A stretch of 53,388 bases of DNA, taken from a virus. Its lineage: Duplodnaviria > Caudoviricetes. Positions 7,746-53,388 of the stretch are shown in pieces. The notes under the pieces are model-generated. The model saw only the letters and a program-made list of their open reading frames with translations, searched no databases and was not told where the DNA came from. The stretch covers positions 1 through 53,388 of IMG/VR virus record IMGVR_UViG_3300015245_000011; one strand, given 5' to 3'. Numbering within the stretch: the first letter of the stretch is position 1; each line of letters begins with the position of its first letter. The position numbers and the translations under genes were made by a program.

Positions 7746-10142
7746 TCAGTACGCCGTGGCCATACACGACAGAATATCGCTCGCCGTCCAGGCAGCCGCT
7801 GTCCCTGCTGCCGCAAAGTTCCCAATCGTGGCGGTCGTGGCGCTGGTGGCCGTTTGTTTGGTCGTAAAGACCGTAGCACTGGTAGTGGTATTATCGGTAC
7901 ATTGAACAGCCCAGCCGACGTTGGCGGTGGGCAGACCAATCACCCCGCTGGTAGCGCTTCCTCCTGTGCCAACGTTGATCGTAAAACTGCACGTGCCATT
8001 GTTGTTGGGAATCGAGGGCGAGCTGCCAAAGCCTGAGGAGATCGTGGGGGCGACGGCTGAGCACAGGGCCTTCCCCGCCATACGCAGCACACTCGTACTA
8101 CTCACGTTCAGATCCCCGACCAGATTGAGATGGTTCCCCAGATTCGCCAGGCCCACCACACTGATGTCGCCTGTCGCGGTCATATTGCCCGCACTATAGA
8201 GATCACCGGCATACAGCACACTACTGCTGCGGTCCCGGTTAGCGAGGTACTGGCCACTGAGCCCAATGAGATCGACGTCGCCCGCGACCCGTACCTTGGC
8301 CACATTGGCGTAGCGTACGGCCGTTGCGGCTGAGCCCGCAAAATAGGCGTAGCCATTGACATATGGCGCCATCCCATTGGCAAAACCCATCGAGGAGCCC
8401 GTCGTGAGATTGGACGCCGTCCAGGTCCCCAGCGTGCCGTCCGCATTGAGACTGGCGTATTCAATGGAGGCAATGACAGTGCCCGCCGTATTGTTGCCGC
8501 CGACCCGGTAGATAGTGCCATTGGCGACGTAGGCCGCAAACTCAGACGCCACCACCGTCATACTGGTTGAGGTCGCAAACACCCCAGGCGCCCCCGAGGT
8601 CCCAAGGAGACTTTTGCGGGTAGTGGCAATCTCATTGGTATAGGTATTGTCCACTTTGCCACCGATATAGTAGAGATAGCCATTGGCGCTAAAGGCCGCG
8701 CCATCGGCCACGGAGATATCCAGGGCATTGCTGGAGGTGGTCCAGGAGCTTAACGTGCCGTTGGCGTTCACCGTCGCATAGTAGACCGTCGCCACGGCAG
8801 CGCCGGCGGTGGTAAAGCCCCCGAGCACATAGATGGTGCCATTGGTATAGACTGCCTGGGCATCATAGAGCGCTACCGGCAAGGCCGTCGTCGTCGCCCA
8901 AGTCCCGACGGTGCCGTCCGCATTGGGCTTGCTGTAGTAAACCGTGGTGGCAGCCGTATTGATGTTACTGGTAAGATGCCCGCCGAGGATATACAGCATG
9001 CCGTTGGCCACCACGCCAGCACTCCCCGAGCGGGCCAGTGGCAGGGTATTCGTCCCTTCGACCGTCCACGACGCGATCGTGCCATTGGCAGCAATCTTGC
9101 CAATTTCAATGGCGGTGGTAGGCGTTACGCCATCAGAGCCTTTGCCACCAATGGAATAGAGATAGCCGGCGTGGGTGAGGACCCGGGCATGGCGCACGAC
9201 GGCATTGAGCACCGTCGTGGTGGTAAAGCTGGCCTGAAAATCGGCGTTCTGGGCGTTGTTAAACGTCGCACTGGGGCCAAAGAACCGGGCACTTTCAACG
9301 CTGGTATTATCGGTTGTTGACGTGGCGGCGGTGCCGGGATAACTAAAGATCGTGACCAGGCCCGTTCCCGTCCCCGTACTAATGCCCGGTCCTATCGCCA
9401 ACTGGCCCCCGTTCTTGTTGGTCGCCCCGCTGGTGGCACCGCCCGCTTGCAGCGTCAGGGCGCTGCCCGCCGTGTTACTCGTGGTAAAGCGCTCGAGGGC
9501 CACGGTGCGTGCCGCATCGCCGCCCAGACTGAAGGCCGAAGACGGAGCGGTAGTCAGAATGCCCACGCGGTGATTGGTGGCATCAACAATGAGCGTGCTG
9601 GTGTCGACTACGACGGTATTGCCGGAGGCGCCGGTGAGCGTCAGGCTGGTTAGTGACGGGGTGGCTGTGTACGCGGGAAGCGTGCCCGTACCTGCCGAGG
9701 CCAGCACCGACCCTGTGGCGACGGCGGCGACCTTACTCAGCGCCGTTGTGGTACTGGCGGCGAGCAGATCCCCAATGGCATACGACGCAAAGCCCGTACC
9801 GCCGCTGGTGGCTGGTAAGGGCGTGGTGAGGACGAGGGCACCCAATGTGGCGGTGTCCGTGGCTTTGACGTACGTGAAACCGGCATCGGCCCCTAAGACG
9901 CCGCTGTCATTAAAAATCACTTGCGTATTTGAGCCTGGCGATGGCACGCTTGCCCCTGAGACGCAGCCAAAACTATTGGTGGAGCGGGTGTACGTCAGGC
10001 CCTGCGTGGGGCAGTTACTGAGCGGCAGGTGATAGACGCCGCCCACGACATCAGTCACATCGACAAAGGTATCTTGGGCCAGGACGGGAACGGTAAGTAC
10101 GAGGAGACAGAACCACAGCAATACAACAACCCATCGTTTCAT
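7746..10142 (-). CDS. fibre/receptor-binding-like protein with signal peptide and six-blade Kelch propeller
   Basis: MKRWVVVLLWFCLLVLTVPVLA; GGTG..SYAIGDLL fibre motifs; blades YLYSIGG, MLYILGG, TIYVLGG, YLYYIGG, TIYRVGG, YAYFAG; SD GGAG. Confidence 0.75.
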   Translation of the reverse strand: MKRWVVVLLWFCLLVLTVPVLAQDTFVDVTDVVGGVYHLPLSNCPTQGLTYTRSTNSFGCVSGASVPSPGSNTQVIFNDSGVLGADAGFTYVKATDTATLGALVLTTPLPATSGGTGFASYAIGDLLAASTTTALSKVAAVATGSVLASAGTGTLPAYTATPSLTSLTLTGASGNTVVVDTSTLIVDATNHRVGILTTAPSSAFSLGGDAARTVALERFTTSNTAGSALTLQAGGATSGATNKNGGQLAIGPGISTGTGTGLVTIFSYPGTAATSTTDNTSVESARFFGPSATFNNAQNADFQASFTTTTVLNAVVRHARVLTHAGYLYSIGGKGSDGVTPTTAIEIGKIAANGTIASWTVEGTNTLPLARSGSAGVVANGMLYILGGHLTSNINTAATTVYYSKPNADGTVGTWATTTALPVALYDAQAVYTNGTIYVLGGFTTAGAAVATVYYATVNANGTLSSWTTSSNALDISVADGAAFSANGYLYYIGGKVDNTYTNEIATTRKSLLGTSGAPGVFATSTSMTVVASEFAAYVANGTIYRVGGNNTAGTVIASIEYASLNADGTLGTWTASNLTTGSSMGFANGMAPYVNGYAYFAGSAATAVRYANVAKVRVAGDVDLIGLSGQYLANRDRSSSVLYAGDLYSAGNMTATGDISVVGLANLGNHLNLVGDLNVSSTSVLRMAGKALCSAVAPTISSGFGSSPSIPNNNGTCSFTINVGTGGSATSGVIGLPTANVGWAVQCTDNTTTSATVFTTKQTATSATTATIGNFAAAGTAAAWTASDILSCMATAY

Positions 10143-10237
10143 GCTACACTCCATAAGTGGCACCGGGTTCGAAACCGGGGCAGGGTTCATCGCCTGCCAG
10201 CCACATCCTCTGATGCCTTTGTGATGTAAGGAAGACC

Positions 10238-10792
10238 ATGTACAAACGCGACCTAGAAGCCGCCAAAGTCTACAATAAGAAATATCACCAGAATCATTAC
10301 GAGGAACATCTAAAACAGGGCGCCATCTACCGCGAAAATAATAGGGCACTCCTTGCTCAAAAGCAGCGAAAGTATTACGCGCTTCATAGAAAGGAAAGGC
10401 TGCTTAATACTAAAACCTATTTTAATACTCATAAAGATTTATGTCACCATCTCTCGAAACGCTATAAATCTCGCAAAAGACATGCACTACACGTTGATCT
10501 TAGTCTTCAGCAATGGGAAGAAATCCAAGCTGCCTATCATTACCGCTGTGTCTACTGCGATAAGAAACCACGCAAGCTCGAAATGGATCACATTACCCCA
10601 TTATCGAAGAATGGCAATCATACTGCCACAAATATTGTCCCCGCCTGCCGAAGCTGTAATGCCAAAAAGAGAGATAAAAAACCACTTGTTCCTGTTCAAC
10701 CAATTCTCCTCACCGTTGCTCAACCAAAACCTAGTCTCCTGGTTGTGGCAAAGGAGGTTGCTCCTTTTTCCACTGATACCCTTCAGAAGTAA
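10238..10792 (+). CDS. HNH endonuclease
   Basis: CVYC...EMDHITPLSKNGNHTATNIVPACRSCNAKK; basic N-terminus; AT-rich; antisense to flanking genes. Confidence 0.9.
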   Translation: MYKRDLEAAKVYNKKYHQNHYEEHLKQGAIYRENNRALLAQKQRKYYALHRKERLLNTKTYFNTHKDLCHHLSKRYKSRKRHALHVDLSLQQWEEIQAAYHYRCVYCDKKPRKLEMDHITPLSKNGNHTATNIVPACRSCNAKKRDKKPLVPVQPILLTVAQPKPSLLVVAKEVAPFSTDTLQK

Positions 10793-18464: not shown

Positions 18465-20930
18465 CTAGCGTGGCGTCACATCAAAGCGCAGCACCCCGCA
18501 GGCAGGGGTGATGGCGCCCGAGGCCGAATTATTAATCATGCGGGCGCGCACCGCATTGCCCCCGGTAATTTCCGCCGTCAGCACCAGGTCTTGTACCAGG
18601 GCACTGGCACACGACGCGGTGACAAAACTATTGGCCGCGGTGGTCGGATAGGGAGGTGTCGTAAAGACCGTGGTATTGGAATAGATCGCATCACTGATGG
18701 CAATTTTACAATTGGCATCGAGATTGTTCCACCCAGACCCGGTACACGACCCGCCAGCGACGCCCGCCGGAATCGCCGTCGTGCAATCATTATTGAAACA
18801 CACCATAAACGAGGTCGTCAGACGGGTATTGAGGGGCGACAACTCGGGACGTCCAATCGATGCATTGGCGCCGCTGCGCACATCCGCCGTAATGTAACCC
18901 GTATCGGGATTGGGAATCCACAGCGTGGAGGTAAAACTATCGGGGATAATGCTATCGAGGATGCGTAAGCCTTTGTTGACCTGCGCACAGGTCCCACCAC
19001 CACCGCACACGGTGGCGGTACAAACCCCGGCCCCAAACCCTAAATTCCCCCCACTCATGAGAAAATCGCAGTCGCTACTCGTGTAGCAGGTGCGCCCATT
19101 CCAGGCCCCGCCGACACAGAAACTGCCGCAGGCCGCGCCGTTATTGGTACACTGCGCTTCCGCCCAGACTTCCCGGGTGTCTTGCGGCATACAAATGGCA
19201 TCGCCGCCAGCGCAGGTGAGGCCTCCGGAGGTATTGGAGCACGGCGGATCGGTCGTTGTGCACAGCGCGCCGGCGTTCGCACCACTGGCACAGAGGCAGT
19301 GTTGCACGCCGGCAAAATAGGCCGGGGTCTGCCGCGTGCCGCGCAGATGCTCAATGGTCAGATTGCGCGTATTAATCAGGTTGAGCTTCGTGCGGGCGAG
19401 CGGGGTATTCGTGGCTGCGCCGTAGACCGGACGAATGGAGCCAATGTTGAAATCTTGCAGCTTCATATCATCGCTGGACTCAACATGGACGGTGGGACTG
19501 CGCGTCCCGCCTTCGGCCTGAAACATCGAAATGGTACAGCCGCCCGAGTTGAACAAATAGATTTCGTTATCTCTATTCGCCCCAAGCCCCATGTTGATAT
19601 CATTGAAGGACGTTTGCCCGCAGCGCCCCTGGTAAAAGGTAATGGGGCCACTGCGCTGCTGTCCCACCATCACATGCTCCACCCGGCTATATTCCAGGCC
19701 AAGCCCGTCAATGGTTTTAATATCGAGGCCCGTTGGTTCGGTGGTGGCGGTACGAAAGAGCACCGGGTTATACGGCGCATCACTCACCTGATTACTGTTG
19801 CGTACATCGACCCGCAGAAAGCTAAAATTGCACCCCCAACAGGTGGCGTTGTAATACATAATCCCGGCACTTTGGTAATTCGCATCGACCAGGAAATGCA
19901 CATGATCCATACTGAGCTGGAGGCGTGAGGACGTCCAGCCACTGCCACTGCCCGCCGTGAGCTGGTAGGCCGTCGCCTGGAACTTCAGCGCTTGCGTCCC
20001 GAGGACCTGGGGGAGTTCAAAACCCAGATTGCTGATACGCTGATTCCAGGCCGGCTGCGGATTAAAGGTCGTATAGCTCGCATCGCTAAAATGGGGCGCG
20101 TCTTCCGACCAGGTAATTTGACTGGTCCCCAGGGCGGTATCAAAGCTCGTGCCGCAGCCCATGAGCAGACTGGCGGTATCACTTTCGCCGACAAGCCAGA
20201 TGACGTTGTACTCATCTTTGCCGCCATAGGTGCGGGGCATGACAATCGAACTACAGCTTTTATAGAGCCCGCGCGGAAAATAGACGATGCCTCCCCGTGG
20301 GCTGAGACTGTCGGCTTGATCGGTACTGGCGCCGTAGGCGAGCCCGGTGCGTAAGCCATCGACGGCGGCCTGAATAGCCGCCCGATCATCATTGGTGTTA
20401 TTGCCAAAGGCGCCGTAGAGTGGATCGCGCACGCTGTAGCGTTGACTGAGCACCCAGGAGCGTGGGACGCGCAGATCATCGACGAGCGTAATGACCCCAG
20501 CGCTGACAAGAACGCGGGCAAAAATGACTGTGGAGGTTTGGGCGGCGGGTCTGGTCGCCGCTTTCTGCCAGAGATAGTGCGTGCCACGCTGCCGCGTCCA
20601 GGTACTGACGGCGGTACTGGTATCGCGGTGCAGGCCGAGCCAGTAAATCCCGTCACCTCCCGTCAGTGGCCCAAGGGTGGCGGCACTCTGCGTGACGTAG
20701 ATCAGGCTCAGCGTGCTGCCCTGCACGTAGCCCTGACAGGCAAAGGCGGCGAAGGTGGCTGACGAGGACGGCACAGGGGGTAAGCATCCTGACGTCTGAA
20801 ACGGCGCCAGGGCATCGCCAAAAAAGGCTTCAAGCTCGCGCTGCGGGTTGGGATCCCCATGCGTATTTCCTGCAAATGAACTATTGGAAAGTACAAAAAG
20901 AAGCATAGCCAGAATGACTAATCGTTTCAC
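18465..20930 (-). CDS. tailspike-like pectin-lyase-fold protein with signal peptide and Cys-rich insert
   Basis: VRDPLYGAFGNNTNDDRAAIQAAVD...GGIVYFPRGLY (Pectate_lyase_3-type N-terminus); GTG start; MKRLVILAMLLFVLSNSSFA. Confidence 0.75.
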   Translation of the reverse strand: MKRLVILAMLLFVLSNSSFAGNTHGDPNPQRELEAFFGDALAPFQTSGCLPPVPSSSATFAAFACQGYVQGSTLSLIYVTQSAATLGPLTGGDGIYWLGLHRDTSTAVSTWTRQRGTHYLWQKAATRPAAQTSTVIFARVLVSAGVITLVDDLRVPRSWVLSQRYSVRDPLYGAFGNNTNDDRAAIQAAVDGLRTGLAYGASTDQADSLSPRGGIVYFPRGLYKSCSSIVMPRTYGGKDEYNVIWLVGESDTASLLMGCGTSFDTALGTSQITWSEDAPHFSDASYTTFNPQPAWNQRISNLGFELPQVLGTQALKFQATAYQLTAGSGSGWTSSRLQLSMDHVHFLVDANYQSAGIMYYNATCWGCNFSFLRVDVRNSNQVSDAPYNPVLFRTATTEPTGLDIKTIDGLGLEYSRVEHVMVGQQRSGPITFYQGRCGQTSFNDINMGLGANRDNEIYLFNSGGCTISMFQAEGGTRSPTVHVESSDDMKLQDFNIGSIRPVYGAATNTPLARTKLNLINTRNLTIEHLRGTRQTPAYFAGVQHCLCASGANAGALCTTTDPPCSNTSGGLTCAGGDAICMPQDTREVWAEAQCTNNGAACGSFCVGGAWNGRTCYTSSDCDFLMSGGNLGFGAGVCTATVCGGGGTCAQVNKGLRILDSIIPDSFTSTLWIPNPDTGYITADVRSGANASIGRPELSPLNTRLTTSFMVCFNNDCTTAIPAGVAGGSCTGSGWNNLDANCKIAISDAIYSNTTVFTTPPYPTTAANSFVTASCASALVQDLVLTAEITGGNAVRARMINNSASGAITPACGVLRFDVTPR

Positions 20931-20959
20931 TAGACACCTAGAATAGACTGTGTTAAAGT
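20931..20959 (+). promoter_or_regulatory. sigma70-type promoter for small RNA 1
   Basis: TAGACA-17 nt-TAAAGT with extended -10 TGn. Confidence 0.6.
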
Positions 20960-20965
20960 ACCAAC

Positions 20966-21062
20966 GGCTCTGAAGTAGCTCCCTGGAAGGGATTGAAACG
21001 AAGATGAGCTCTTCTGTGATATCGGCCGTACAGGCAAAACGATATCCAGTTACTTCAGAGCT
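20966..21062 (+). ncRNA. solitary CRISPR-repeat-derived small RNA 1 (candidate)
   Basis: CCCTGGAAGGGATTGAAACGA at 20981-21001; 14-bp closing stem 20967-20980/21048-21061; two internal hairpins. Confidence 0.65.
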
Positions 21063-22629
21063 AAATCCTCATCGGTCGCGTCAAAGATTTCTGTGACAAT
21101 TGCCACTCGACGCCTCTGAGCGTCAGCGATCCTGCGCCGGTCAACTCCGTCCACAACACTTCGCCTGTGCGTCCAATATCCCAGAAGAGTTCGTCTTCGA
21201 TCTGCGCTTCCACTCCTGATCCTGGATACGCCTGGGCGGTAAGTGTGACGCGCTTGGTTTGCCTGACGTGTTGTGGCATCCGGGCTGGTCCCAAAACAAA
21301 ATCTCCCACCACTTGTTGCCCAGCGTAGATGGCAAAGAACTCCGCCAGAAACCGGCGCAGGTAGGCCCGACGCATCGGTTGCGGCAGCGGCGGAAAGCGC
21401 ACCTGCCAAGGAATCGGTACGCCGTCATCGCGCAGGTCCCCCGTAAAGATGCGTTGCACGGCGGGTTGGGCCGCGAGCCCGGCCTGCGTATAGGGCAGGG
21501 CGCCAGGTTCGAGGAGCAGGTTGCAGGTCGCCCAGGGCGTTGGAAAGGTACAGATGGTCCAGGCTTTCTTGGTCACATCGAACACGAACACTCGGTCAAG
21601 CCCGGTACTTTGCGGCGTCGACGGACAGGCGCAGATATAGAGCGGCGGATTTTGGGATTGCGTGGCGACCGAGAGATGCGCCGCAGTATAGTTGAGCCCG
21701 GTAATGTCGTCATGGCCAAAAATATAGGGCCGAATGTTGTCCGAAATGACCTGATCGTTGAGACCATTAAAAAGTGCAAAGCCGCGGTGCGTCAGACGGA
21801 TCATCCCGAAGTTCGGAATGAACTGCACGGTGCGCCCGGCAATACAACCCATATCCGTTTTCACCTGCGTAATCGTGGGCGCCGCGCTGCCGCCAAAGGC
21901 CCCTGAGGCTTGATAGGTTGAGAAGTCTTTAAAGAGCACTAGGACGTTATCCGGGGAAATCCCTGATTCTGCGATCGTAAAGACCCCGATGCCTGTGCCC
22001 GATTGCCCGTCATCCTTGGCTACAAAGAGCTGGTTACCCACGGGCCACGAATGAAAGTTTTCCACGTCACTCTGGCGTATCGACGAGGGGCCATCATAGG
22101 TCGACGTCGTTTGGGCCGTATTCCAGGCCCATACGGCGTTCTGGTGGATGACCATCCACTTGGCGCCAGGGATCATGTCTGCTGCTGGATCGGTCGGAAA
22201 GATGCTGAAGCTCGCGCCGTTGGTCACGTAAGGCACGGTATAGCCATCCGTCATGAGCGTCTGGTCCAGAAAATTCAGCATCGTGGGCGTGTCGTACTGG
22301 AGTGCAAACGTCCCCAGCAGCGTCCAGGGCGTCTCGCTGCGGTAGAGTTTCTGCGTGCCGTCCACTTCACTGGTAATACGCAGGCGAAAGATCGACCCAT
22401 TATTGAGAGAGAGCGAGTTGAGGTCCAGCACACTTACCACAGTCGCCGGGATCGTCGGTGGGGCTTCCACCGTGACCACCCCATCGCGGACCCGCAGTGC
22501 GCCCGTCTGATCGAGCAAAAAGTTCTCGCAGCGCAGCAGCTCAGTCGGCTTCAGCGTCCAGGGTGAGGCGACGGTGTTCAGGCCTCCACTGAAATCTGCT
22601 TTGGTGACTGGTTTCAGATTCTCAGGCAT
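21061..22629 (-). CDS. tail tubular B / P22 gp10-like stabilisation protein
   Basis: DFSGGLN N-terminus, MGCIAGRTV motif, beta-rich; synteny. Confidence 0.7.
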   Translation of the reverse strand: MPENLKPVTKADFSGGLNTVASPWTLKPTELLRCENFLLDQTGALRVRDGVVTVEAPPTIPATVVSVLDLNSLSLNNGSIFRLRITSEVDGTQKLYRSETPWTLLGTFALQYDTPTMLNFLDQTLMTDGYTVPYVTNGASFSIFPTDPAADMIPGAKWMVIHQNAVWAWNTAQTTSTYDGPSSIRQSDVENFHSWPVGNQLFVAKDDGQSGTGIGVFTIAESGISPDNVLVLFKDFSTYQASGAFGGSAAPTITQVKTDMGCIAGRTVQFIPNFGMIRLTHRGFALFNGLNDQVISDNIRPYIFGHDDITGLNYTAAHLSVATQSQNPPLYICACPSTPQSTGLDRVFVFDVTKKAWTICTFPTPWATCNLLLEPGALPYTQAGLAAQPAVQRIFTGDLRDDGVPIPWQVRFPPLPQPMRRAYLRRFLAEFFAIYAGQQVVGDFVLGPARMPQHVRQTKRVTLTAQAYPGSGVEAQIEDELFWDIGRTGEVLWTELTGAGSLTLRGVEWQLSQKSLTRPMRI

Positions 22630-30400: not shown

Positions 30401-30607
30401 CTAGCTCTTTCCCCCGCCAGGGAACTCTGGCTTCCAGTGATTGCCATGGCCTTCATCCCCACCACCAGCCGTAATCTGCGGCACGGTATGGCCTACCGGG
30501 TCCATAATGCCCAGTGGGTCAGGGGGAGTGCCAGCCATTGGGGAACGCACGGTTGCGTGATGGACGCCAGTTTCATAGAGCGGACTCACGATTTCGACTT
30601 CAGCCAC
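30401..30607 (-). CDS. small head-module protein
   Basis: SD AAGGAG before GTG; VAEVEIVSP... Confidence 0.5.
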   Translation of the reverse strand: MAEVEIVSPLYETGVHHATVRSPMAGTPPDPLGIMDPVGHTVPQITAGGGDEGHGNHWKPEFPGGGKS

Positions 30608-30703
30608 GGTGTTCTCCTTGTTATGTTTGTGGCGAGGCCAGCCCATATTCTGGGGGAAGATAGCTGGCCTCACCCCTAAAGCCGCGGGCTCCCGCAGCTC
30701 CAG

Positions 30704-30778
30704 CTACATCCGACGCCCTTTGCGACCTTTCTTCCGGCCACGACGCTCCAGTACAGTATGCTCTGGTTGGTTAGACAT
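30704..30778 (-). CDS. 24-aa Arg/Lys-rich peptide
   Basis: MSNQPEHTVLERRGRKKGRKGRRM; G-rich SD upstream. Confidence 0.5.
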   Translation of the reverse strand: MSNQPEHTVLERRGRKKGRKGRRM

Positions 30779-30863
30779 TGCTTCATCCCCCCTCTCAGGT
30801 GTCTCGGGCTAGAGAAAAATAGGACACAGATTAATGGTGCCTATAAGAGATTTTAATGTCAAG

Positions 30864-31100
30864 CTAATTGTTGTGCTCAGCGTCTTGCTTACGGCTTTCG
30901 ATAGACGCCTCTATGCTACGTTTCAACATCTCCTGAAACTCTTTCTTTCCGTGCTGCCTCTCGTAGTCATGTAGGGAGTATTTGGGGATGAAAAACGACG
31001 CTTCCCCTTCCCCATGCTTCCCACCACTGACTTCATAGGCTACTGAACCATCTTTGCCGCGCACTTCCCTGATATTGCTAACGCCGGTATCGTCTGGCAT
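30864..31100 (-). CDS. hypothetical protein
   Basis: SD AAGGA; abuts the upstream gene. Confidence 0.6.
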   Translation of the reverse strand: MPDDTGVSNIREVRGKDGSVAYEVSGGKHGEGEASFFIPKYSLHDYERQHGKKEFQEMLKRSIEASIESRKQDAEHNN

Positions 31101-31313
31101 TCACAATTCCTTCTTTGCTATATAGGCTTTAAGTATCCTTACAAGATGAAGACGCATGCGTTTTAATCTACGTTTTTCTTCCGAACCCTTACCGCTGCGT
31201 CCAGGTCGATATGGCGGTGGGTGAGGATTATAGTATCTACTCTCACGGCGGGATACCCATCCTGAACCATACTCAACCTTGACACGATGAATCTGTTCAT
31301 AGATGGTACTCAT
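31101..31313 (-). CDS. basic hypothetical protein
   Basis: SD AAGGAG. Confidence 0.55.
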   Translation of the reverse strand: MSTIYEQIHRVKVEYGSGWVSRRESRYYNPHPPPYRPGRSGKGSEEKRRLKRMRLHLVRILKAYIAKKEL

Positions 31314-31343
31314 AGCGGCTCTCCTTCGCCTACGCCTTCACAT

Positions 31344-31505
31344 TTAGACTTCTGGATGCTGCTCAGCAAGTGTACGTACTACAGCGGCATGCTCCGGTGG
31401 CAGCTGTACTGTGGCGGTTGCTTCCTTCGTATGCCCTGCCGCAAATGCTTGCAACGCCTGCCCAAGCAGCGTTGTTGCGAGTTGAAGAATCATAAGCCAG
31501 CTCAT
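31344..31505 (-). CDS. 53-aa hypothetical protein
   Basis: ATGA overlap with the portal stop; MSWLMILQLATTLLGQALQAF... Confidence 0.5.
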   Translation of the reverse strand: MSWLMILQLATTLLGQALQAFAAGHTKEATATVQLPPEHAAVVRTLAEQHPEV

Positions 31506-33265
31506 TTTCTACTCCTACTACTACTGCCCTGTTTCGCTTTCGCAGCAGCCTGCAACTCCAGGGCTTTCTGGTTCCGTTGTGCAATCGCCTTTCCACCAGG
31601 AAATTCTAAGATAGCAAGCAAATCTTCATCGGAAGACATTCTCCCCATCTTGGCCAGGGCCATGGCCAGGCGTTTCACCATCGTTTTGCTGTTAATACTA
31701 AAACTTGCTGGATCAACCACCGCCGCATACTGCTTCCAGTCACGCAGCGGTTCCCACAAGACCGGCTCCCACTGCTCGCCTTGCGCAAAGGGCAAGACAC
31801 GAGGCACGGTATAGAACTGTCCCATGCGGGCGACGATCTTGGAGACGAGTTTATGGACGGCCATAAAGAGATAACGAGCTCGTAAGCGCGTGAGACCCAT
31901 CGACTGACTTATTTCTGTTTCGGTAAGCTCAGCAGACACGTTGCCGCGACCTTGTTGGCCAGCGCGAGAAGGTTGGTGGCCAAGCTGCTCACGCATGATA
32001 CTCCGCAGACGTCCACCGTGTTGGATGAGGTCGGCTGGCATCGGGGGTGGGCGCTCGGCCCGAACTTCTGAGCCAGCGCGCTTAAAAATGACCTGGCCAG
32101 GGATATCAGCAAAGGTGCGAGAATTGATGCCAGAATTAGCATCAGCAATCCAAAAAGCTTTCTGCATACGCAGGGCATTTTCCACCACCAGGGATTCGAG
32201 TTTATCGCTGGCTCGTTGTAACTCAAGGAGTTCCCCGACGATTGATTTCTCTGGCCAGAACCTGTGGACCGTCGGTTGCAGCGTCACACGGATGACATCA
32301 AAGCCGTCACCGTAGGGCATCGGCCCATCGTAGAGAATGACATTGGAGGTCGCCTGGATAAAGCGGCCCTGCGGGTATTTGTAGCGCACGGTGCGACGGA
32401 GACGGTCGACGCCCTCGGGATCTTTCAGCATCTCTGGAATGACTTCGAGCGTGGCGTCTTTGACACGCGCCGTAATGACGGAGACTCTCGTATCCATGCC
32501 GTGCGTCGGCACCGGCGCATTGACGGGATAGAGGGGCGTCAGCAGCCCAACACCCGACGGGCGATCCATCGGCATCGTCATAGGCATGGGGTCTGAAGGC
32601 CTGGCAGCATCAGGCTTCACACGCCAGCCCTGGTCAGGCCAGCGTTGACGTACCTCGTTAATGTCCAGGACGTCCTGTGTAATGCAGTAGCGCCAATCCT
32701 CATCATCCGTAGCGTAGGGGTCTGGGAAGACCGTTTGCGGTGGGCGGACACGGACGATGACTTCGCCCTGGCCCTGAAGACGCAGCGGGTCCCACGGCAC
32801 CTCAAAGAACCCGCAGGGCCAGATGGCCGCATCAGCACAGGCTTCCAGGATGGTAATATCGAGAAAGTAGCGCTGCCAGTAAGCGCGAATAGCTTTCTCC
32901 ACCTGTTCTTCCCGCGTACCGGTCACAGGATTCGAGGTGACATAGACCGTGGGAGAATTATCGGTGAGATCGGAGAGTTCGGTAAGAATGAGCCGCTTCA
33001 TCTCGTTAATCTGGATGGGGGATTTCCAGGACGGTAACACATCTGGCCAATAATCTCCCCAGTAGCCGCGCTCCCAGTCTCTCCAAATGTTTGTAGGCAA
33101 AGTCTTTTGTCGAGCGTTTAGGGCATCTAGATACAAACCATTAACCCACTGACTGAGTAACTCTTCCCCTTGCCGCTGTTCGCCGACAGCTCGGTCAACG
33201 CGAGCATTTTCACTGTTATAGTCATGGCGACCGTTAACCGTAACGCGGGGAGAAGCAGTAGCCAC
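31502..33265 (-). CDS. portal protein (P22-like)
   Basis: 587 aa; position after terminase; DAAIWPCGFFEVPWDP, VFPDP, ILYDGPMPY, ELQRASDKL motifs. Confidence 0.8.
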   Translation of the reverse strand: MATASPRVTVNGRHDYNSENARVDRAVGEQRQGEELLSQWVNGLYLDALNARQKTLPTNIWRDWERGYWGDYWPDVLPSWKSPIQINEMKRLILTELSDLTDNSPTVYVTSNPVTGTREEQVEKAIRAYWQRYFLDITILEACADAAIWPCGFFEVPWDPLRLQGQGEVIVRVRPPQTVFPDPYATDDEDWRYCITQDVLDINEVRQRWPDQGWRVKPDAARPSDPMPMTMPMDRPSGVGLLTPLYPVNAPVPTHGMDTRVSVITARVKDATLEVIPEMLKDPEGVDRLRRTVRYKYPQGRFIQATSNVILYDGPMPYGDGFDVIRVTLQPTVHRFWPEKSIVGELLELQRASDKLESLVVENALRMQKAFWIADANSGINSRTFADIPGQVIFKRAGSEVRAERPPPMPADLIQHGGRLRSIMREQLGHQPSRAGQQGRGNVSAELTETEISQSMGLTRLRARYLFMAVHKLVSKIVARMGQFYTVPRVLPFAQGEQWEPVLWEPLRDWKQYAAVVDPASFSINSKTMVKRLAMALAKMGRMSSDEDLLAILEFPGGKAIAQRNQKALELQAAAKAKQGSSSRSRK

Positions 33266-33274
33266 TAGAAACTC

Positions 33275-34288
33275 CTACAAGGGAATATCGCCCATAAGAT
33301 GGGCAAGCTGCTCACTCAGGGCGCGCAAGTGATCAAGCCATGTTTGCGAAACATCTTGGCCAGCAGGACGCTCGATATAGCGTTGTAAAATATCGCCATG
33401 CTCTCTCGAGATGCGAGCAATATCAATACCGGAATGCTGGGCTTCTTGCAGATCACGATTGATCTCCTGCGACAAGCCCCAGAATTGGTCATCAAGCTCC
33501 TCTGACGCCGCAGGAGGCGGGATCGATCTCGTTCTCAAAGCCTGTTCGGCGGCACCACTGCGATACGAGCTCGCCATAGCCCTACTCAATTGACGATGCA
33601 ATTCAGTCAGCTCCTGAGCCTCGCCATAATTCTCCATTGTTGCCGCTGCATGTTGGATATCGCCGTAGATGTGCTCAAAGCCACTGGTGTCTATGCCCTG
33701 GCTGCGTAAATGCGCCAGGCGTTCACGAATCCCGCTGTGGAGGAGTCCGGTGCTGCTGGTATCGGGCATATTAGGTGGCATGTCTATGAGGCCGCTACGA
33801 TACTCCGAGGGCATCATAGTCTGCCGGACGTCATCGTCAACGTTGAACTCGAACGGTTCTTGGCCTATCGGCGCATCAGCGCGGTACAGTTGCTCTCTTG
33901 GCCTGGGTGTTGTGAGACGCGTACCTGGAAGGCCACCTTCCTGGAGTGCCCGCATGCGTGCTACCGCTGCGTCGGTGCTCCGTCCGGCAGTCTCTGTCAG
34001 CGCCGGCAGGCCAGGCGTTGGCAGCGTGCGGCGAGCCGGCATCCCTAGTTCCTGTACTGGCGCCTGGATACCGCGGTACTGGCTAAGGAACGGCGCCAGA
34101 ATCATGGCAATCTGACTGATCGGATCAGCGGGATCCCCGAGCGGTAACGCCTCAACACCACCCTGCTCGGCCCGCTCCGTGCGCGAGAATGGGCCGCTAA
34201 AGGGGCTCCCAGCATACAACGCGGTATCCTCAGGCAGTCCTCGACTTGTGAGTCGCGTGAGTGCACTGATCCAGTCATTGTCGGCCAT
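33275..34288 (-). CDS. hypothetical protein
   Basis: Long ORF in the late operon. Confidence 0.65.
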   Translation of the reverse strand: MADNDWISALTRLTSRGLPEDTALYAGSPFSGPFSRTERAEQGGVEALPLGDPADPISQIAMILAPFLSQYRGIQAPVQELGMPARRTLPTPGLPALTETAGRSTDAAVARMRALQEGGLPGTRLTTPRPREQLYRADAPIGQEPFEFNVDDDVRQTMMPSEYRSGLIDMPPNMPDTSSTGLLHSGIRERLAHLRSQGIDTSGFEHIYGDIQHAAATMENYGEAQELTELHRQLSRAMASSYRSGAAEQALRTRSIPPPAASEELDDQFWGLSQEINRDLQEAQHSGIDIARISREHGDILQRYIERPAGQDVSQTWLDHLRALSEQLAHLMGDIPL

Positions 34289-34339
34289 GAACACCCACCC
34301 CTGAACAACTTAAAGAGGGTACATATTCAACACAGTCAT

Positions 34340-34513
34340 TCATGTACAGCAAACGCATGCATGCAAAAGATCCATGCATAAACACTCGCATGAAACTCTT
34401 GCATGCAAAAGATTTACATACACACATGCGCATGCATTGAGATAACTCATATTCTATGAGCCTACAGAGAAAAAACAGTACGAGTCATTTTTTCTATGCA
34501 TGTGCATGCATGT
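34340..34513. repeat. CATG/ATGCAT-rich tract with a 14-bp direct repeat
   Basis: 11 CATG counted in about 175 bp; TGCATGCAAAAGAT at 34358-34371 and 34400-34413. Confidence 0.8.
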
Positions 34514-35097
34514 CACCGCGTTTGAAAGAAACCGTAGGGATCATCGTCGCCACCGGCCACAGGAATCGGCCGCTCCTGTCCTGGCACCATCGCGACACCC
34601 TCGCCAAGGCCCATGCGTCGGCGATATTCGAGGGCGCATTCGTTACTATCGACTAAATGCACATAACCGGCCACGCCGCCCTGTCCGAGTCGGGTCTGCA
34701 TCGTGCGCGGGCGATCCGTCACGAGCACCCACTCATGCGAGGTGCCGCACACCATACAGAGCCAGTGGCGCTGATTATGTGGCGTACAGGAGGGGCAGGC
34801 GCAGGCTGAGCCCACAAGTAACCGGGCTTCCCACGCAGCATCCTTTTGTCCTGGCAACATGAAGGAGCCATCGGCGCGCTGCTGAATCATCCCGGCATCG
34901 CGGTAGGTATGCATGAGCTGGAGGAGCTGGGCAAGTTGGGCTTGCGGATCAAAGGGCGGCGGGGGCTGTCGGTCGACAATCAGGGGCTGACTTTCCGCTG
35001 ACGAGGTGACCACATCCTCAAGGATATCCTCGTCCGTCTCGCTGTCCGCTGGTTCGTCCTCTGGCGGATCATATTTAGGCGCATTGTATTTTGGCAT
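34513..35097 (-). CDS. hypothetical Zn-binding protein
   Basis: CACPSC...CMVC...H; acidic N-terminus. Confidence 0.6.
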   Translation of the reverse strand: MPKYNAPKYDPPEDEPADSETDEDILEDVVTSSAESQPLIVDRQPPPPFDPQAQLAQLLQLMHTYRDAGMIQQRADGSFMLPGQKDAAWEARLLVGSACACPSCTPHNQRHWLCMVCGTSHEWVLVTDRPRTMQTRLGQGGVAGYVHLVDSNECALEYRRRMGLGEGVAMVPGQERPIPVAGGDDDPYGFFQTR

Positions 35098-35125
35098 GAT
35101 GTTTGCAACCTATAACATTATAGCA

Positions 35126-35155
35126 TTGTGCCATCTTTACAAAGGATGCTATGCT
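35126..35155 (+). promoter_or_regulatory. putative promoter for small RNA 2
   Basis: TTGTGC-18 nt-TATGCT with extended -10 TGn. Confidence 0.5.
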
Positions 35156-35160
35156 CCTTC

Positions 35161-35253
35161 TGGGCGTGGCTACGGTACCCTGGAAGGGATTGAAACGATC
35201 TTAGCGTACGACGGTACGGTACGTTCCCGTACCGTTGCCGTACCCACCGCCCA
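35161..35253 (+). ncRNA. solitary CRISPR-repeat-derived small RNA 2 (candidate)
   Basis: CCCTGGAAGGGATTGAAACGA at 35178-35198; closing stem 35161-35177/35236-35253; internal 9-bp hairpin. Confidence 0.6.
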
Positions 35254-35440
35254 CGGCGTTAGCGCGGCCATCATCTCGTGCACCAGCGCCCATGGTCCCG
35301 CCGGTTTTGCTCTTGGTGACAAAGCGCAGCGTGCCGCAGGTTGGGCACTCGAAGGAATTCCCCGTTTCAAACTCTTTACGGAACACCATCTGGTGACGGC
35401 CGCGGGAATGCTCGATGCAGGATGGACAGACGATCGTCAT
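35201..35440 (-). CDS. small Zn-ribbon protein
   Basis: CPSC...CPTC; SD GGAGG. Confidence 0.6.
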   Translation of the reverse strand: MTIVCPSCIEHSRGRHQMVFRKEFETGNSFECPTCGTLRFVTKSKTGGTMGAGARDDGRANAVGGGYGNGTGTYRTVVR

Positions 35441-35911
35441 AGGGTGAAACCTCCCCAAGAAGTAGGGAGGGAGGGCTCGACCACCGCATGGTGTGGATCA
35501 CAGGGCAGGAGCCGATATCCCAGTGGAGGGCGTACATCTCAGGCGTGCGACTGAGAGAGCCGGTGTCCAGCGCTAGGATAGTAGCATACGGATGCGGTAT
35601 TCTACAACAAACGCGCCAAGACTGCCGGCCCTTCGTCTTCCATGGCCCGTAGGAACGCTTCAACGCTGAGGCTACACGCTGCCGCCACATCGTCCATGGC
35701 CACGGCGGCGATCTGACAACTCGCCTCGATAGGAAACATATACCCCAGGGCATTGGTGCTAAAGACGGCTCCACGCAACTGCGCGGTCACACCGCCTGGT
35801 CACAGCCCTTTATTCCTGTGTCCCCAGGAGGAGGTCCGCCACCAGTTGGCGGTTTCGAGAACGGCCCGTTTTTCGGTGGTGGTCAGCATGCATTGTCCTT
35901 GCGTCAGGAGG

Positions 35912-36304
35912 TCAGAGCGCCTGGGTACCTTCGACCCCGCGCCCCAGACGGTCTTCCGTGCGCTTGCGCAGCATCTGCTGGGCCATAATCACATACGTGA
36001 GCGCGTCATGATTCTCTTTGCAGGCATAGGCCCCGGACTGAAAGCCTTCCAGCCGGTCGCGCACAATCGCCAGCAGCGCCTCATTACTCACCCCATTGAC
36101 CCCCACCTCCTGCACCGGCCCCTCCTGGAAGTGCGTGTCCCAGGTCCAGCGGTCCAGATACTCAATCCGGTAGTGGTGACAGGCGCCGCCGTAGCCCGGC
36201 TCATCCATCACCCGAATGCGGAGCTGGTCATTGAGGGACGGAACTTTCTGGGGAGGGACATTGGGATGCTCCACTTTGTGCGTCTCAATCTCACGAAACA
36301 TCAT
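35912..36304 (-). CDS. tad1: Tad1-family anti-Thoeris/anti-CBASS signal-sequestering protein
   Basis: GGACHHY...FQEGP...NGVSNEALLAIVRDRLEGFQSG...ENHDALT...RKRTEDR..RGVEGT follows the Tad1 motif series (GGAxHxY, FQxG, LLxIVxDRLxxFQxG, ENxxAL, RxEDR); SD GGAG. Confidence 0.88.
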   Translation of the reverse strand: MMFREIETHKVEHPNVPPQKVPSLNDQLRIRVMDEPGYGGACHHYRIEYLDRWTWDTHFQEGPVQEVGVNGVSNEALLAIVRDRLEGFQSGAYACKENHDALTYVIMAQQMLRKRTEDRLGRGVEGTQAL

Positions 36305-36305
36305 T

Positions 36306-38015
36306 TCACCACTCCAGAAACGTTGCAGGTTGTTGCATGCCGTCCAGTGTTTCTCCCAGGGTTGCACCCATAACACGTGAAAGCATCGCCGCATCCCGGT
36401 CATGAATCTCTTCCTGATGCTGTAAGTGTAAAGCATCAAAGGGGAACTGCAGGGCTATCTGCGCGTGCGACGTCTGCGGGATATGGTTCTGAAACCGGCC
36501 CATCAGCGCAATGCCCCAGGCCATGAGCAAATCGTCATGCCCGCTTAACGCTTCAATCGCCCCACTGTCCTTCTCGCCAAACGTCCGGAGCTGCGTGAGG
36601 AGGGCCCGTGAATGAATCAGGGCGGAGCGCTCATCGATCACTTCCCGCATCCTGGCAATCATCTGGGGTTTGGTCCTGGAATTGGTTTCCCACCCATATA
36701 GGACTGGATTATACGCCCGTATTCTATCGTTAGCGCCTTTCCAGCCGCCAATAGACGGGTAGTTATAGGAGTCACGGAGGTAGACAATGAGTTCGCGGCC
36801 GCCGCCCCCGCCACTACTCTGGACTTCTGGAAAGAGGAGGGCCTCATTATACGCCCGACCCAGCATGGCCAGGTCTCTGGCAAACGTATGCGGCGGTGCT
36901 GGCGCTTCGTACTCGGCCACTTGCTCGAGCGTATCCATGTCCACCACTTCTGCGGCACTCCGTGAATGGGATGCATCATCATGCCCCATGGCGCTATCAG
37001 CCCCAATTACATACTCGTGCCCAGGAGAGGGAGGTTTGAAGATCACAAATCTTCCCTCTGTATCGTCTTGAAAACGCACGTGTTCTCGTACTTCAAGAAG
37101 TTTGCCACGGCGCCCCCGTTCAACCCAGGGCTCCAGCCACAGCAGGTCCCTGGCGGAGAAATAGGGCGTTCCTGACATAATGAACGCCATCTCGGGGGTC
37201 GCCGGGTACTCCTGGTTAAATTTCTCGGGATCGTCCTGACACTCGTCCACAATGACACGCCGCCGCCAGCGTAACTGTCCCCAGGTGAGTCCCAGGTCTT
37301 TTTTGAGCTGCGCCTCATCACTCTCCATATCGTCGAGCGGCTTGTTATTCAAAGACGTATACTGCGGAAAGGTATGCCACGGCAGGAAGATCGGCACAAA
37401 GGACCCCTCGCCCTTGACTGCCTTGAGCCATTCTTCGTAAAACAGTGCCCCGTCATCGACCATGCCGTTGGCCGTGGACTCAATAAACGCCGCGCTAAAG
37501 ACATCTTCTTCCCGTGGCAAACACTGGAGAATGGCCAGCATGGCCAACGGATCTTTCCAGAACGCGACTTCGGAGAGATGGCAGGCGGTCAGATCGCTGC
37601 CGCGTGTGGCATTGGGGCTTCCGGCCGTCGCCAGTTCCATCGTCGAATGGCGAAACTGAATCTTGTGCCCGGTAATAGTGCCAATAGCCTTGAGCGGCGA
37701 GGCTTCTACAAAGCGTTTGGACATATCCCAGATACGCTCGGTCGGCTTGGCCTCATGCGCGACGACCATGACCTGCGAATAATCCTGCATGACACAGAGG
37801 CAGGTGAGAAAGTTCTCAATCCAGGAGGACATCCCCAACCGGCGCGCTTTGAGGACAATGCGGCGAATCGGGCGGCCGGCGTCGAGGTCCGGCGCAATCG
37901 AGCGGTGGATATAGTCTTGCGCCTGGTTAAACCGCATCGGCACAATCGCGCGCCGGGGCGTCCGGACCGGGAGACGTTCCATGAGGCGGCGGTAGACCTG
38001 GCTAGGGAGCGGCAT
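36306..38015 (-). CDS. terL: terminase large subunit
   Basis: IVLKARRLGMSS (Walker A), HLSEVAFW (Walker B), ESTANG, IGADSA, HDDLLMA. Confidence 0.93.
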   Translation of the reverse strand: MPLPSQVYRRLMERLPVRTPRRAIVPMRFNQAQDYIHRSIAPDLDAGRPIRRIVLKARRLGMSSWIENFLTCLCVMQDYSQVMVVAHEAKPTERIWDMSKRFVEASPLKAIGTITGHKIQFRHSTMELATAGSPNATRGSDLTACHLSEVAFWKDPLAMLAILQCLPREEDVFSAAFIESTANGMVDDGALFYEEWLKAVKGEGSFVPIFLPWHTFPQYTSLNNKPLDDMESDEAQLKKDLGLTWGQLRWRRRVIVDECQDDPEKFNQEYPATPEMAFIMSGTPYFSARDLLWLEPWVERGRRGKLLEVREHVRFQDDTEGRFVIFKPPSPGHEYVIGADSAMGHDDASHSRSAAEVVDMDTLEQVAEYEAPAPPHTFARDLAMLGRAYNEALLFPEVQSSGGGGGRELIVYLRDSYNYPSIGGWKGANDRIRAYNPVLYGWETNSRTKPQMIARMREVIDERSALIHSRALLTQLRTFGEKDSGAIEALSGHDDLLMAWGIALMGRFQNHIPQTSHAQIALQFPFDALHLQHQEEIHDRDAAMLSRVMGATLGETLDGMQQPATFLEW

Positions 38016-49126: not shown

Positions 49127-49306
49127 GTGGCAACACCAATAAGTGCCGTCGAAGCAGAATGCCGCTTGAGTATCGGCGTGGCCTACGCCGCATGGCTCTG
49201 GGGCCCAGACAGCGACGGGTTTTTTAGCGCGCAGGCCTACGACGAGATACTCGGATTTCACCTCGTGGACTACGAGCGGGCCATGGGGCTCGATCTCCCA
49301 TGCTAA
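49127..49306 (+). CDS. paralogous microprotein 1 (59 aa)
   Basis: SD AAGGAG, GTG start; MATPISAVEAECRLSIGVAYAAW...DYERAMGLDLPC. Confidence 0.75.
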   Translation: MATPISAVEAECRLSIGVAYAAWLWGPDSDGFFSAQAYDEILGFHLVDYERAMGLDLPC

Positions 49307-49321
49307 GAGAGGGCCACGATC

Positions 49322-49489
49322 ATGAGCCACATCGAAGAAGAATGCCGCTACGCTATTGCCGTGGCGTATGCCGAGTGGTGCTGGGCGCACGGGAGTAAAG
49401 GGCTGTTCAGTGTCTATGCAGCGGATAGTGATGTCGGCCTCAACTTGCTGGAGTATGAACGGGCCCTGGGGCTCGATCCACCGCTCTAA
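49322..49489 (+). CDS. paralogous microprotein 2 (55 aa)
   Basis: SD GAGG; MSHIEEECRYAIAVAYAEW...EYERALGLDPPL. Confidence 0.75.
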   Translation: MSHIEEECRYAIAVAYAEWCWAHGSKGLFSVYAADSDVGLNLLEYERALGLDPPL

Positions 49490-49502
49490 AAAGGGGACAC
49501 CT

Positions 49503-49706: not shown

Positions 49707-49812
49707 AGAGGCTCTTGCGTTACCAAGGCGCGGCTAGGTTGATCACCGAACGCTGGAATTTCCCGCCAGCTGCCGCGCCTCTATCATCAGGGAAACGTGA
49801 AGGGAACACGTC

Positions 49813-50403
49813 ATGCCAGCTTCTCCCTATGCTGCTATCTGGGAACACTCTCGTTGTAGAAATAGTGAACTACTGCTCTTGCTTGCCATTGCTGATGACG
49901 CTGATGCTGATGGGATAGCCCGTTGTTCTGTCGCATCGCTCTCCCGTAAATCTAGACTGAGTTCTCGCCAGGTACAACGCCTGCTCCGCGTGCTCGAAAA
50001 AAAAGGCGAGATCTTCACTACCGCCGATGGCCGCCCCGGGAAACCCAACATCTACACGGTGACGTTTACGGTGTCAGGGGTGACATCTGAGGTGTCAGGG
50101 GTGACACCGAGGGCAAAGGCCTCTTCTCTTAGTGATGAAACCTGGCCTGGACTACGTGACTTGATCCTCAGTTTTGGACTACCTCTTGAGTATCTGGACG
50201 ATGACAACTGGTGGAACGCAACCAGTCATGCCGTCGGTGGTATCAATATGCAGGTTCTGGATAAAGAGTTTGGTAAGATCGAGGCGTATCTCATCGAACA
50301 CCCGCGCAAACGTCCGCAGCCACGCGGCTGGAAACGTTTTGTCCGCACGTGGCTGCAACGCGCTTACGAATACGAAAGGAAATATCATGGCCGCTCCGCT
50401 TAG
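49813..50403 (+). CDS. HTH replication initiator-like protein
   Basis: LLLLAIADDA...SVASLSRKSRLSSRQVQRLLRVLEKKG...NIY; DNA repeat GGTGTCAGGGGTGACA twice in mid-gene; C-terminal WKRFVRTWL. Confidence 0.75.
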   Translation: MPASPYAAIWEHSRCRNSELLLLLAIADDADADGIARCSVASLSRKSRLSSRQVQRLLRVLEKKGEIFTTADGRPGKPNIYTVTFTVSGVTSEVSGVTPRAKASSLSDETWPGLRDLILSFGLPLEYLDDDNWWNATSHAVGGINMQVLDKEFGKIEAYLIEHPRKRPQPRGWKRFVRTWLQRAYEYERKYHGRSA

Positions 50404-52862: not shown

Positions 52863-53388
52863 TGGAACTCGACGGACTCAATATCATCTGCCTTGATTTG
52901 GAATGCCTCCGCAGTCCAGACGATTGCCGCTACTGTGGCAAACCACCTGAACAGTGCCAAGGGCCCCTGCGTATTCCGCCGGTACTTCCCCATGGTTTTG
53001 TCAAGATTGGCTGGGAGAACAAGCCGGCCCTGGGACTCTCCATCGGCTGTTACTACGCCTACGGGGATAGTCGTCTGCACTTTTTTGACCGCCACACCCT
53101 GGAAGACACCATAACCTCCTTCGTAGAAATGGCTTGTCTGCTCGTGAGTTTCAACGGGATAAGCTTCGACTTCTCGCTGATGCGTGGACTCCTCAGGCAA
53201 GAAGCGGACGCGCTCCGGCTCTCAGAGTCCGACGCGGATCTCTTTCGGAGTGGGGTGCTGGTCGAGTTGTGCGATCGGTTCAAGGATCTCTGCGCGGTGT
53301 CCTACGATATCCTGGCTGAAATCTGGCGCGCAGACCCTCAGGGCAAGTTTGAGCGCGGGGTGAACTCCCTGGACGCGATTAGTCAGGC
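52862..53388 (+). CDS. RNase H-like DEDD 3'-5' exonuclease, 5' part (continues across the junction to 294)
   Basis: ATG at 52862 overlaps the upstream stop (TGATG); reads MELDGLNIICLDLECLR...VSFNGISFDF...YDILAEIW, containing ExoI DxE and ExoII N-x3-FD motifs. Confidence 0.8.
   Translation, partial: MELDGLNIICLDLECLRSPDDCRYCGKPPEQCQGPLRIPPVLPHGFVKIGWENKPALGLSIGCYYAYGDSRLHFFDRHTLEDTITSFVEMACLLVSFNGISFDFSLMRGLLRQEADALRLSESDADLFRSGVLVELCDRFKDLCAVSYDILAEIWRADPQGKFERGVNSLDAISQ
53312..53388. repeat. 77-bp exact terminal overlap (copy 2)
   Basis: Identical to 1-77; 77 is a common assembler k-mer size. Confidence 0.97.

Follow-up and report, generated by a model that had tools for sequence, protein, structure and literature searches.

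RNA anti-CRISPRs (Racrs), which derive from solitary repeat units carried by viruses together with promoters, are an established mechanism of CRISPR inhibition (Camara-Wilpert et al., Nature 2023, PMC10651486). According to that study, Racrs were verified for types I-F, I-E, I-C and V-A, and candidates drawn from IMG/VR span nearly all CRISPR types. For RacrIF1, it describes that Cas6f binds and cuts the RNA, that the hairpin is required, and that an aberrant Cas6f-Cas7f complex forms along the 5' flank, the inhibitory part being the long 5' flank and the hairpin coated with Cas7f (PMC10651486). In type I-G, cleavage of the repeat by Csb2 gives an 8-nt handle, and the enzyme then remains attached to the hairpin (K_D 43 nM) and does not bind the handle (bioRxiv 10.1101/2022.08.08.503147). 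Two further groups of viral elements draw on CRISPR repeats, namely the Cracrs, phage repeat-derived small RNAs that hijack host Cas proteins for counter-defence (Liu et al., bioRxiv 10.1101/2024.10.29.618823), and the viral CRISPR mini-arrays, which serve virus-virus competition (PMC11656645). Here we compare with these systems a small RNA locus of a soil phage. In the work on CreA and CreR, Cracrs are reportedly mini-array units, with a spacer-like part between degenerate repeats. The locus can also be likened to phage morons, promoter-bearing accessory cassettes that sit between late genes.

The locus lies in IMG/VR record IMGVR_UViG_3300015245_000011, a complete viral record (Duplodnaviria; Caudoviricetes) that was analysed over its whole length of 53,388 nt, here called the window. 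An exact 77-nt terminal direct repeat (1-77 = 53312-53388) could mean that the genome is circular or terminally redundant, or could reflect an assembly overlap. The record encodes a P22-like portal (PF16510), for whose homologs (108 + 7 clusters) the only named match was a distant protein of a candidate division WOR-3 MAG, the atlas clusters being mostly viral. No isolated relative was matched by tblastn among 50,697 GenBank phages. There is no tRNA in the 53,388-nt window, and a scan that covered two cas families, cas6 and cas1, found neither in the phage record. At gathering thresholds the sole Rfam match of the window was an int-alpA motif (RF02996, 40.6 bits, above the gathering score) at 49727-49792 (+). 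This motif directly precedes the gene of an HTH_36 protein (49813-50403) and itself follows, at a distance of a few hundred bases, an imperfect direct repeat of 67 nt (49251-49317 and 49434-49500, 70% identity). Four copies of a 50-nt repeat (8415-9109, 60-74% identity, spacing 156-321 nt) within the 867-aa ORF 7746-10349 suggest a repeated domain of a tail-fibre-like protein.

A reading made from the sequence alone had placed a small RNA in a 130-bp gap between tail tube and tailspike genes. The ORF bounds confirm the gap, which spans 20931-21060 and is filled by the cassette, between ORF 18465-20930 and ORF 21061-22629, both on the minus strand. The downstream neighbour (18465-20930), whose start codon abuts the cassette, encodes an 821-aa protein with a pectate-lyase-like domain (PF12708, E 1.9e-7), and the tailspike label fits this domain. 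The upstream neighbour (21061-22629) encodes a 522-aa protein of no known family; it matched 0 families in Pfam or PHROGs, and the name tail tube is therefore unsupported.

Small RNA 1 occupies 20966-21062 on the plus strand, 97 nt built around one CRISPR repeat unit. RNAfold returned a four-way junction both as the minimum free energy (MFE) structure and as the centroid, at -42.8 kcal/mol, compared with -23.4 +/- 3.3 for 200 dinucleotide shuffles (z -5.94, 0/200 as stable), in agreement with the compact junction proposed before. The closing helix, referred to here as the clamp, has the 14 bp and the one G-U that had been claimed for it. Its 5' arm (20967-20980, GCTCTGAAGTAGCT) stands where a CRISPR repeat has its variable 5' half; its 3' arm (21048-21061, AGTTACTTCAGAGC) overlaps at its end the stop of the 522-aa gene (TAG, minus strand, 21063-21061), and the arm duplex amounts to -24.3 kcal/mol. 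Enclosed by the clamp are a Cas6-type repeat hairpin, CCC-TGGAA-GGG (20981-20991), the same as in the repeats of arrays in genome loci, an 8-nt crRNA 5' handle, ATTGAAAC (20992-20999), which is unpaired in the fold, and a 48-nt structured insert in the place of a spacer (21000-21047). A second hairpin, GAAGA-TGAGC-TCTTC (21000-21014), directly follows the handle, and a third, bulged one (21018-21046) pairs GATATCG (21018-21024) with CGATATC (21040-21046) around GCC-GTACA-GGC; all three hairpins thus stand where the earlier reading had put them. The exceptional stability of the whole RNA is mainly due to the clamp. The antisense strand is less stable (-38.6 kcal/mol, z -4.9).

A predicted sigma-70-type promoter (20931-20959, +; TAGACA, 17-nt spacer, TAAAGT, TG before the -10) ends 7 nt 5' of small RNA 1, and the start would be expected near G20966. 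Scanning of 20700-21300 gave one promoter site against 0.4 expected, and the promoter is hence a consensus match only. In the same interval terminator-like sites numbered 0 on both strands; the closing stem is followed by TAAATCC, and no intrinsic terminator is formed.

The 19-nt core of the unit, CCCTGGAAGGGATTGAAAC (20981-20999), has a second copy at 35178-35196, on the same strand and 14.2 kb apart. Two copies compare with 0.01 expected by chance, and no further copy was found in the window at up to 3 mismatches. The core is made up of the short hairpin CCC-UGGAA-GGG and the 8-nt handle AUUGAAAC. We found the identical 19-mer in 30 bacterial genome loci, mostly CRISPR arrays with periods of 71-77 nt, in which the repeats, 36-37 nt long, all have this sequence as their 3' end and differ between taxa in their 5' halves; a Cas6-type hairpin was also predicted in most of the host repeats folded. 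In line with these matches, Rfam CRISPR-DR9 hits below threshold ended exactly at 20999 and 35196 on the plus strand, while neither unit matched any family at gathering thresholds. Scanning of 20 flanking ORFs from 10 array loci gave cas matches at four loci, belonging to type I-D (L024, with Csc1/Cas5d, Cas4, Cas1d and a weak Cas6; L030, with Cas1d) and type I-G (L027 and L019, with a Cas4g/Cas1g fusion and a Cas6-like protein, and a Cas3g-like helicase in L019). No cas match was seen among the ORFs scanned at the other six loci. When 35 array, chromosomal and viral loci (L003-L037) were compared with the phage by blastn-short, no match longer than 16 nt was found outside the repeat, and therefore those genomes provide no host link. 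The idea that the clamp mimics a 5' hairpin of the host repeats was dropped, because only about half of the repeats have such a hairpin, and then as a weak stem of 3-4 bp. Single 19-mers with conserved flanks were also seen in two Melainabacteria-type genomes and one cyanobacterial MAG (L028:6927-6945, L031:7249-7267, also L004), with no array in the stretches compared and no clamp helix; these could be orphan repeats or chromosomal crRNA-like genes.

To describe the history of the cassette, we turned to relatives of the 522-aa protein, which were present on eight metagenome contigs, seven of them spanning the gene end. In five of the seven (L040, L041, L044, L046, L047) the junction is cassette-free, and the stop codon overlaps the tailspike ATG with no spacer in between; the cassette is present in one (L045). 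The remaining junction, L043:1785-2045 (corresponding to window 20931-21060), carries a different and unrelated AT-rich insert of about 230 nt, which includes a short ORF with a helix-turn-helix-like sequence. The tailspike junction seems to be a hot spot at which accessory cassettes insert. Among IMG/VR relatives of the 522-aa and 821-aa genes, the L038 contig ends before the junction and the distant L039 is without the unit. With up to 3 mismatches allowed, none of the 21 IMG/VR records that encode a related portal (37-93% identity) contained the motif. An accessory insertion by its distribution, the cassette looks, with its own predicted promoter, like an RNA-carrying moron oriented against the tail operon. 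Like a moron, it is a compact cassette placed exactly between the stop and start of two tail genes and missing from most relatives, with another insert at the L043 junction. Unlike a moron, it carries a non-coding RNA in place of a protein gene, and no terminator-like site was found.

The unit in L045 is also 97 nt long and has the same fold, with 14 substitutions relative to the window. The repeat core and the next two bases (21 nt) are unchanged. Substitutions affect 9 of the 48 insert positions, and 5 of the first 18, with the helices kept. One pair changed in a compensatory manner, from A-U to G-C in the 21018-21046 helix, and five one-sided changes lead to or from G-U. When the MFE structure of the window was laid on L045, 94% of cells were standard pairs, as against 31-42% with the partners slid by 1-3 columns; four cells were unpaired. 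Two of these belong to the first hairpin, whose stem is re-formed in L045 with a larger loop and falls out of register in the ungapped alignment. Wobble pairs (G-U and U-G) in the clamp work only on the plus strand, and the sense strand therefore folds better than the antisense strand in L045 (-34.0 versus -26.4 kcal/mol). The sequence-only reading had made its junction depend on conservation in relatives, and the fold is indeed kept, with a compensatory change, in this one ortholog. As only two sequences are compared, the covariation shuffle control (254/500) is uninformative, and the conservation is suggestive rather than proof. In the L045 promoter the -35 is TGGACA, the TG is kept, and the -10 is weaker (AAAGGT).

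The second solitary unit of the window, small RNA 2 (35156-35257, +; core 35178-35196), shares the same 21-nt core. Its closing helix has a 5' arm at about 35161-35177 and a 3' arm at about 35236-35254, within the neighbouring gene, and taken alone is not significant (p 0.09 and 0.08). The body of small RNA 2 runs antisense to a conserved ORF for a 79-aa zinc-ribbon-like protein (CxxC...CxxC; 35201-35440, minus strand), whose 3' end it covers. A viral contig with 82% nucleotide identity to window 30588-37249 (L035) is without the segment corresponding to 35125-35197, which in the window comprises a promoter-like stretch, the 5' arm and the hairpin with its handle; the 79-aa protein is conserved there end to end, with no repeat unit at that place. 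Since L035 keeps the gene without the repeat segment, what would be the spacer of unit 2 is a native phage gene in antisense. L035 has a unit of its own elsewhere, which reads in the same direction as the small gene that it directly precedes. A terminator scan near small RNA 2 gave 0 sites. About 750 nt from this unit, between ORFs 33275-34294 and 34513-35097, lies a tandem pair of 42-nt copies (34351-34434, 74% identity) rich in ATGCATGC motifs, which look like iterons or operators.

We then asked how widely the clamp occurs. The exact 19-mer was present in five viral contigs, as a mini-array of four repeats in L033 and as solitary units in L034 and L037 (mutually identical), L035 and L036. 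In all of these solitary units the 22 nt 5' of the hairpin pair with a downstream stretch, whose distance from the handle varies widely. For unit 1 of the window this pairing had z -4.1, with p 0.007 against dinucleotide shuffles and p 0.002 against natural windows of the same record. The corresponding values were z -3.1, p 0.010 and p 0.013 for its ortholog in L045, z -7.6, p 0.003 and p 0.001 for L034 (= L037), and z -4.4, p 0.003 and p 0.013 for L035. The helix was marginal in L036 (z -2.3, p 0.027 and p 0.058) and not significant in window unit 2 (z -1.3, p 0.093 and p 0.081) and in L090 (z -0.9, p 0.179 and p 0.29). Fisher's combined p was 3e-6 over six units, L045 being left out as the ortholog of unit 1. 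Among chromosomal single hits, no clamp was found in the 13 tested (z -0.6 to +2.0; the 14th was too near the contig end). The terminal repeat of the L033 mini-array had none (z -0.6), and the mini-array units of L033, L087/L092/L097, L091 and L095 have no clamp helix. Relaxing the search to a 17-mer brought in 13 more loci, comprising mini-arrays, hits that appear to lie in coding sequence, and L090; none has a significant clamp. The arm sequences are unrelated between units, save for a weak likeness of L034 and L036 (13/25), and a miniature transposon with terminal inverted repeats was ruled out because the arms differ in this way. Unit 1 would give a 71-nt product, close to a 73-nt array period; we regard this crRNA-like length as a coincidence, because the corresponding length in the other clamped units is anything from about 47 to 140 nt.

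Other members of the repeat family in viruses were noted alongside. The mini-arrays hold 2-4 repeats (L033, at G022:13467-13688; L087/L092/L097; L091; L095), and some end in degenerate handles, ATTGAAAG or ATTGAAAT. In L089, L091 and L036 an ATG lies 0-1 nt after the last handle, and the GGAAGGGA of the repeat thus stands where a ribosome-binding site would be. A 49-nt stretch of the window (10156-10204, in ORF 7746-10349, minus strand) is 98% identical to L033:2606-2654, the contigs being otherwise dissimilar.

Weighing these observations, we think that small RNA 1 is probably, though far from certainly, a Racr-type RNA anti-CRISPR aimed at the Cas6 of type I-D/I-G systems and equipped with a clamp helix. 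In favour of this reading are the identity of the core to CRISPR repeats, the junction fold with its conservation in one ortholog, the polymorphic presence of the insertion, and the finding of the clamp in other phages. Like a Racr, small RNA 1 is a single intergenic repeat mimic with a predicted promoter just upstream (the distance allowed for such viral solitary units being 250 bp), with no cas6 or cas1 gene in the record and no partner repeat, and its hairpin and handle are the same as in real repeats; titration of Cas6 and other Cas subunits would be expected. Unlike the verified Racrs of types I-F, I-E, I-C and V-A, its repeat goes with I-D and I-G arrays. Compared with the long, Cas7f-coated 5' flank of RacrIF1, its flank is about 15 nt, paired with the 3' arm and part of a four-way junction, and so the details of the mechanism must differ. 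As Racr candidates have already been drawn from IMG/VR (PMC10651486), this record may be among those in the supplementary tables of that study.

In the mechanism that we propose, small RNA 1 would be transcribed on the plus strand from its own promoter, antisense to the tail operon, and the transcript would present the Cas6 hairpin and the 8-nt handle of the host repeat on a very stable scaffold. Host Cas6 (Csb2 in I-G) would bind the hairpin and cut between G20991 and A20992. Cas6 enzymes stay on their product, and Cas6 would likewise remain on the cleaved RNA, while the 14-bp closing helix would hold both halves together and protect the ends from exonucleases. Such a long-lived RNA could occupy Cas6, and possibly handle-binding subunits (I-D), in a complex without a usable guide, and the supply of real crRNA complexes would fall. 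Loading of Cas7 from the hairpin in the style of RacrIF1 seems unlikely because the 5' flank is short and double-stranded. Several points count against the Racr reading. The promoter is a consensus match whose -10 is weaker in L045, the stability of the insert hairpins is matched by 14% of real spacers, and the fold conservation is based on a single ortholog. In addition, the clamp is not significant in unit 2 and L090 and marginal in L036, and the cassette lies inside a tail operon, away from known anti-defence genes.

A bolder form of this proposal, which we consider possible but doubtful, is that the clamp helix marks a separate structural class of RNA anti-CRISPR, a pure Cas6 sponge rather than a Cas6-Cas7 filament. 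Such a class would consist of a module of promoter, arm, hairpin and handle, whose 5' arm would pair with whatever lies downstream, namely its own 3' arm in unit 1 and the neighbouring gene in unit 2, L034 and L036. After the cut by Cas6 or Csb2, a nicked, exonuclease-resistant junction would keep the enzyme on its product, and the double-stranded 5' flank would bar the extension of Cas7 from the hairpin. We found no description of this clamp architecture in the main text and legends of PMC10651486 or in the parts consulted of bioRxiv 10.1101/2024.10.29.618823 and PMC11656645.

Of the other explanations, a one-repeat guide survives best, although we think it unlikely. The handle cut by Cas6, together with the insert, would then be loaded as a crRNA or as a Cracr-type regulatory RNA, and would be directed at a competing phage or at a host cas promoter, which would be repressed via partial pairing. 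The intact and unpaired handle fits a guide, as do the mini-arrays with repeats of the same family in other phages (four repeats in L033; also L087/L092/L097, L091 and L095), and Cracrs are described to need only about 9 PAM-proximal matches (bioRxiv 10.1101/2024.10.29.618823), a number below detection in our searches without the host genome. Against a guide stands the absence of a second repeat, even a degenerate one: the best downstream match was 9/19 for unit 1, where the typical genome-wide best is 10/19, and a partial repeat search at both units gave 9/19 or 11/19, which is the background level. Small RNA 1 is therefore not flanked by two repeats, and its insert is not of array-spacer length: it measures 48 nt, whereas 294 real spacers taken from arrays with this repeat family measure 34-40 nt (median 36). 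In other clamped units the insert is anywhere between about 21 and 111 nt long. Viral mini-arrays, with which the window units share the repeat family (2-4 repeats in L033, L087, L091 and L095), have at least two repeats, array-length spacers and related-virus targets, none of which is found in the window units. Small RNA 1 is likewise unlike a Cracr in having one repeat, a 48-nt structured insert and no target in our searches.

These searches also bear on the near-perfect target with a PAM that the sequence-only reading had named as the evidence against itself. No such target emerged: exact 20-mers and 21-mers of the insert are absent from IMG/VR, blastn against GenBank phages gave only noise (E~3), the rest of the window holds no target at up to 3 mismatches, and a 10-12-nt seed match, such as partial pairing of a Cracr with a host cas or creT promoter would involve, is absent from 30 array or cas loci (218 kb), none of them known as host; the searches used exact words or named collections and would miss imperfect targets and the host genome. 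The ortholog in L045 changes 5 of the first 18 insert positions and keeps the helices, and the would-be spacer of unit 2 belongs to the phage itself. The earlier preference for a decoy over a guide hence stands as the better-supported reading, but the argument given for it, the self-pairing of the insert, is weak. The insert has an MFE per nt of -0.308, and 14% of the 294 real spacers are at least as structured; self-pairing alone is not exceptional.

Somewhat less likely again is a Cas6-dependent processing or sensing site, at which host Cas6 would cut phage transcripts at the repeat. For example, a downstream message would be released or activated only in CRISPR-bearing hosts, and the clamp would fix the site or the ribosome-binding region. 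This accords with the units of L034/L037, L035 and L036, which lie in sense directly upstream of a small ORF, with the ATG found immediately behind the handle in L036, L089 and L091, and with the clamp of L034, which encloses the start of a predicted ORF; moreover, one bicistronic RNA carries RacrIC1 and AcrIC5 (PMC10651486). Both window units, however, are antisense to every neighbour, and no plausible plus-strand ORF follows them, and therefore this explanation misfits small RNA 1. The small ORFs behind the sense units match no family.

We consider it improbable that the cassette is a functionless leftover, derived from an earlier phage mini-array or from a recombination event with a host array. 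Its sporadic distribution (0/21 portal relatives, 1/7 junction relatives) is what such a remnant could leave, but 21 nt are unchanged in L045 against 14 substitutions across 97 nt, the helices there have one compensatory change and wobble-compatible changes, a promoter-like site lies at the right distance, and the clamp recurs in unrelated units. Least probable of all is that the element works within the minus-strand mRNA of the tail operon, as an intercistronic stabiliser or processing site, or else acts as a cis-antisense regulator, its CRISPR likeness being irrelevant: the antisense strand also folds well, the cassette contributes the sequence that immediately precedes the tailspike start codon and any plus-strand transcript would be antisense to the operon, but the CRISPR repeat is matched exactly over 19 nt twice in the same orientation, the wobble pairs of the clamp are possible on the plus strand only, the sense fold is better by 4-8 kcal/mol (window and L045) and is the better one in 5 of 6 units, terminator-like sites are absent on both strands, and five relatives do with overlapping stop and start codons.

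In summary, we return to small RNA 1 as a probable RNA anti-CRISPR of the Racr type. RNA anti-CRISPRs are a recent discovery, verified for four subtypes only, and to our knowledge few inhibitors of I-D and I-G systems have been described. The cassette is a compact, well-delimited candidate anti-CRISPR against both, and natural controls are at hand in the cassette-free relatives and in the ortholog with compensatory changes. The recurrent clamp suggests a design rule that turns a single repeat into a stable Cas6 trap, and such a rule could help to switch off I-D or I-G editing tools. If true, the clamp class would be, as far as we know, the first class of RNA inhibitors for type I-D/I-G systems.
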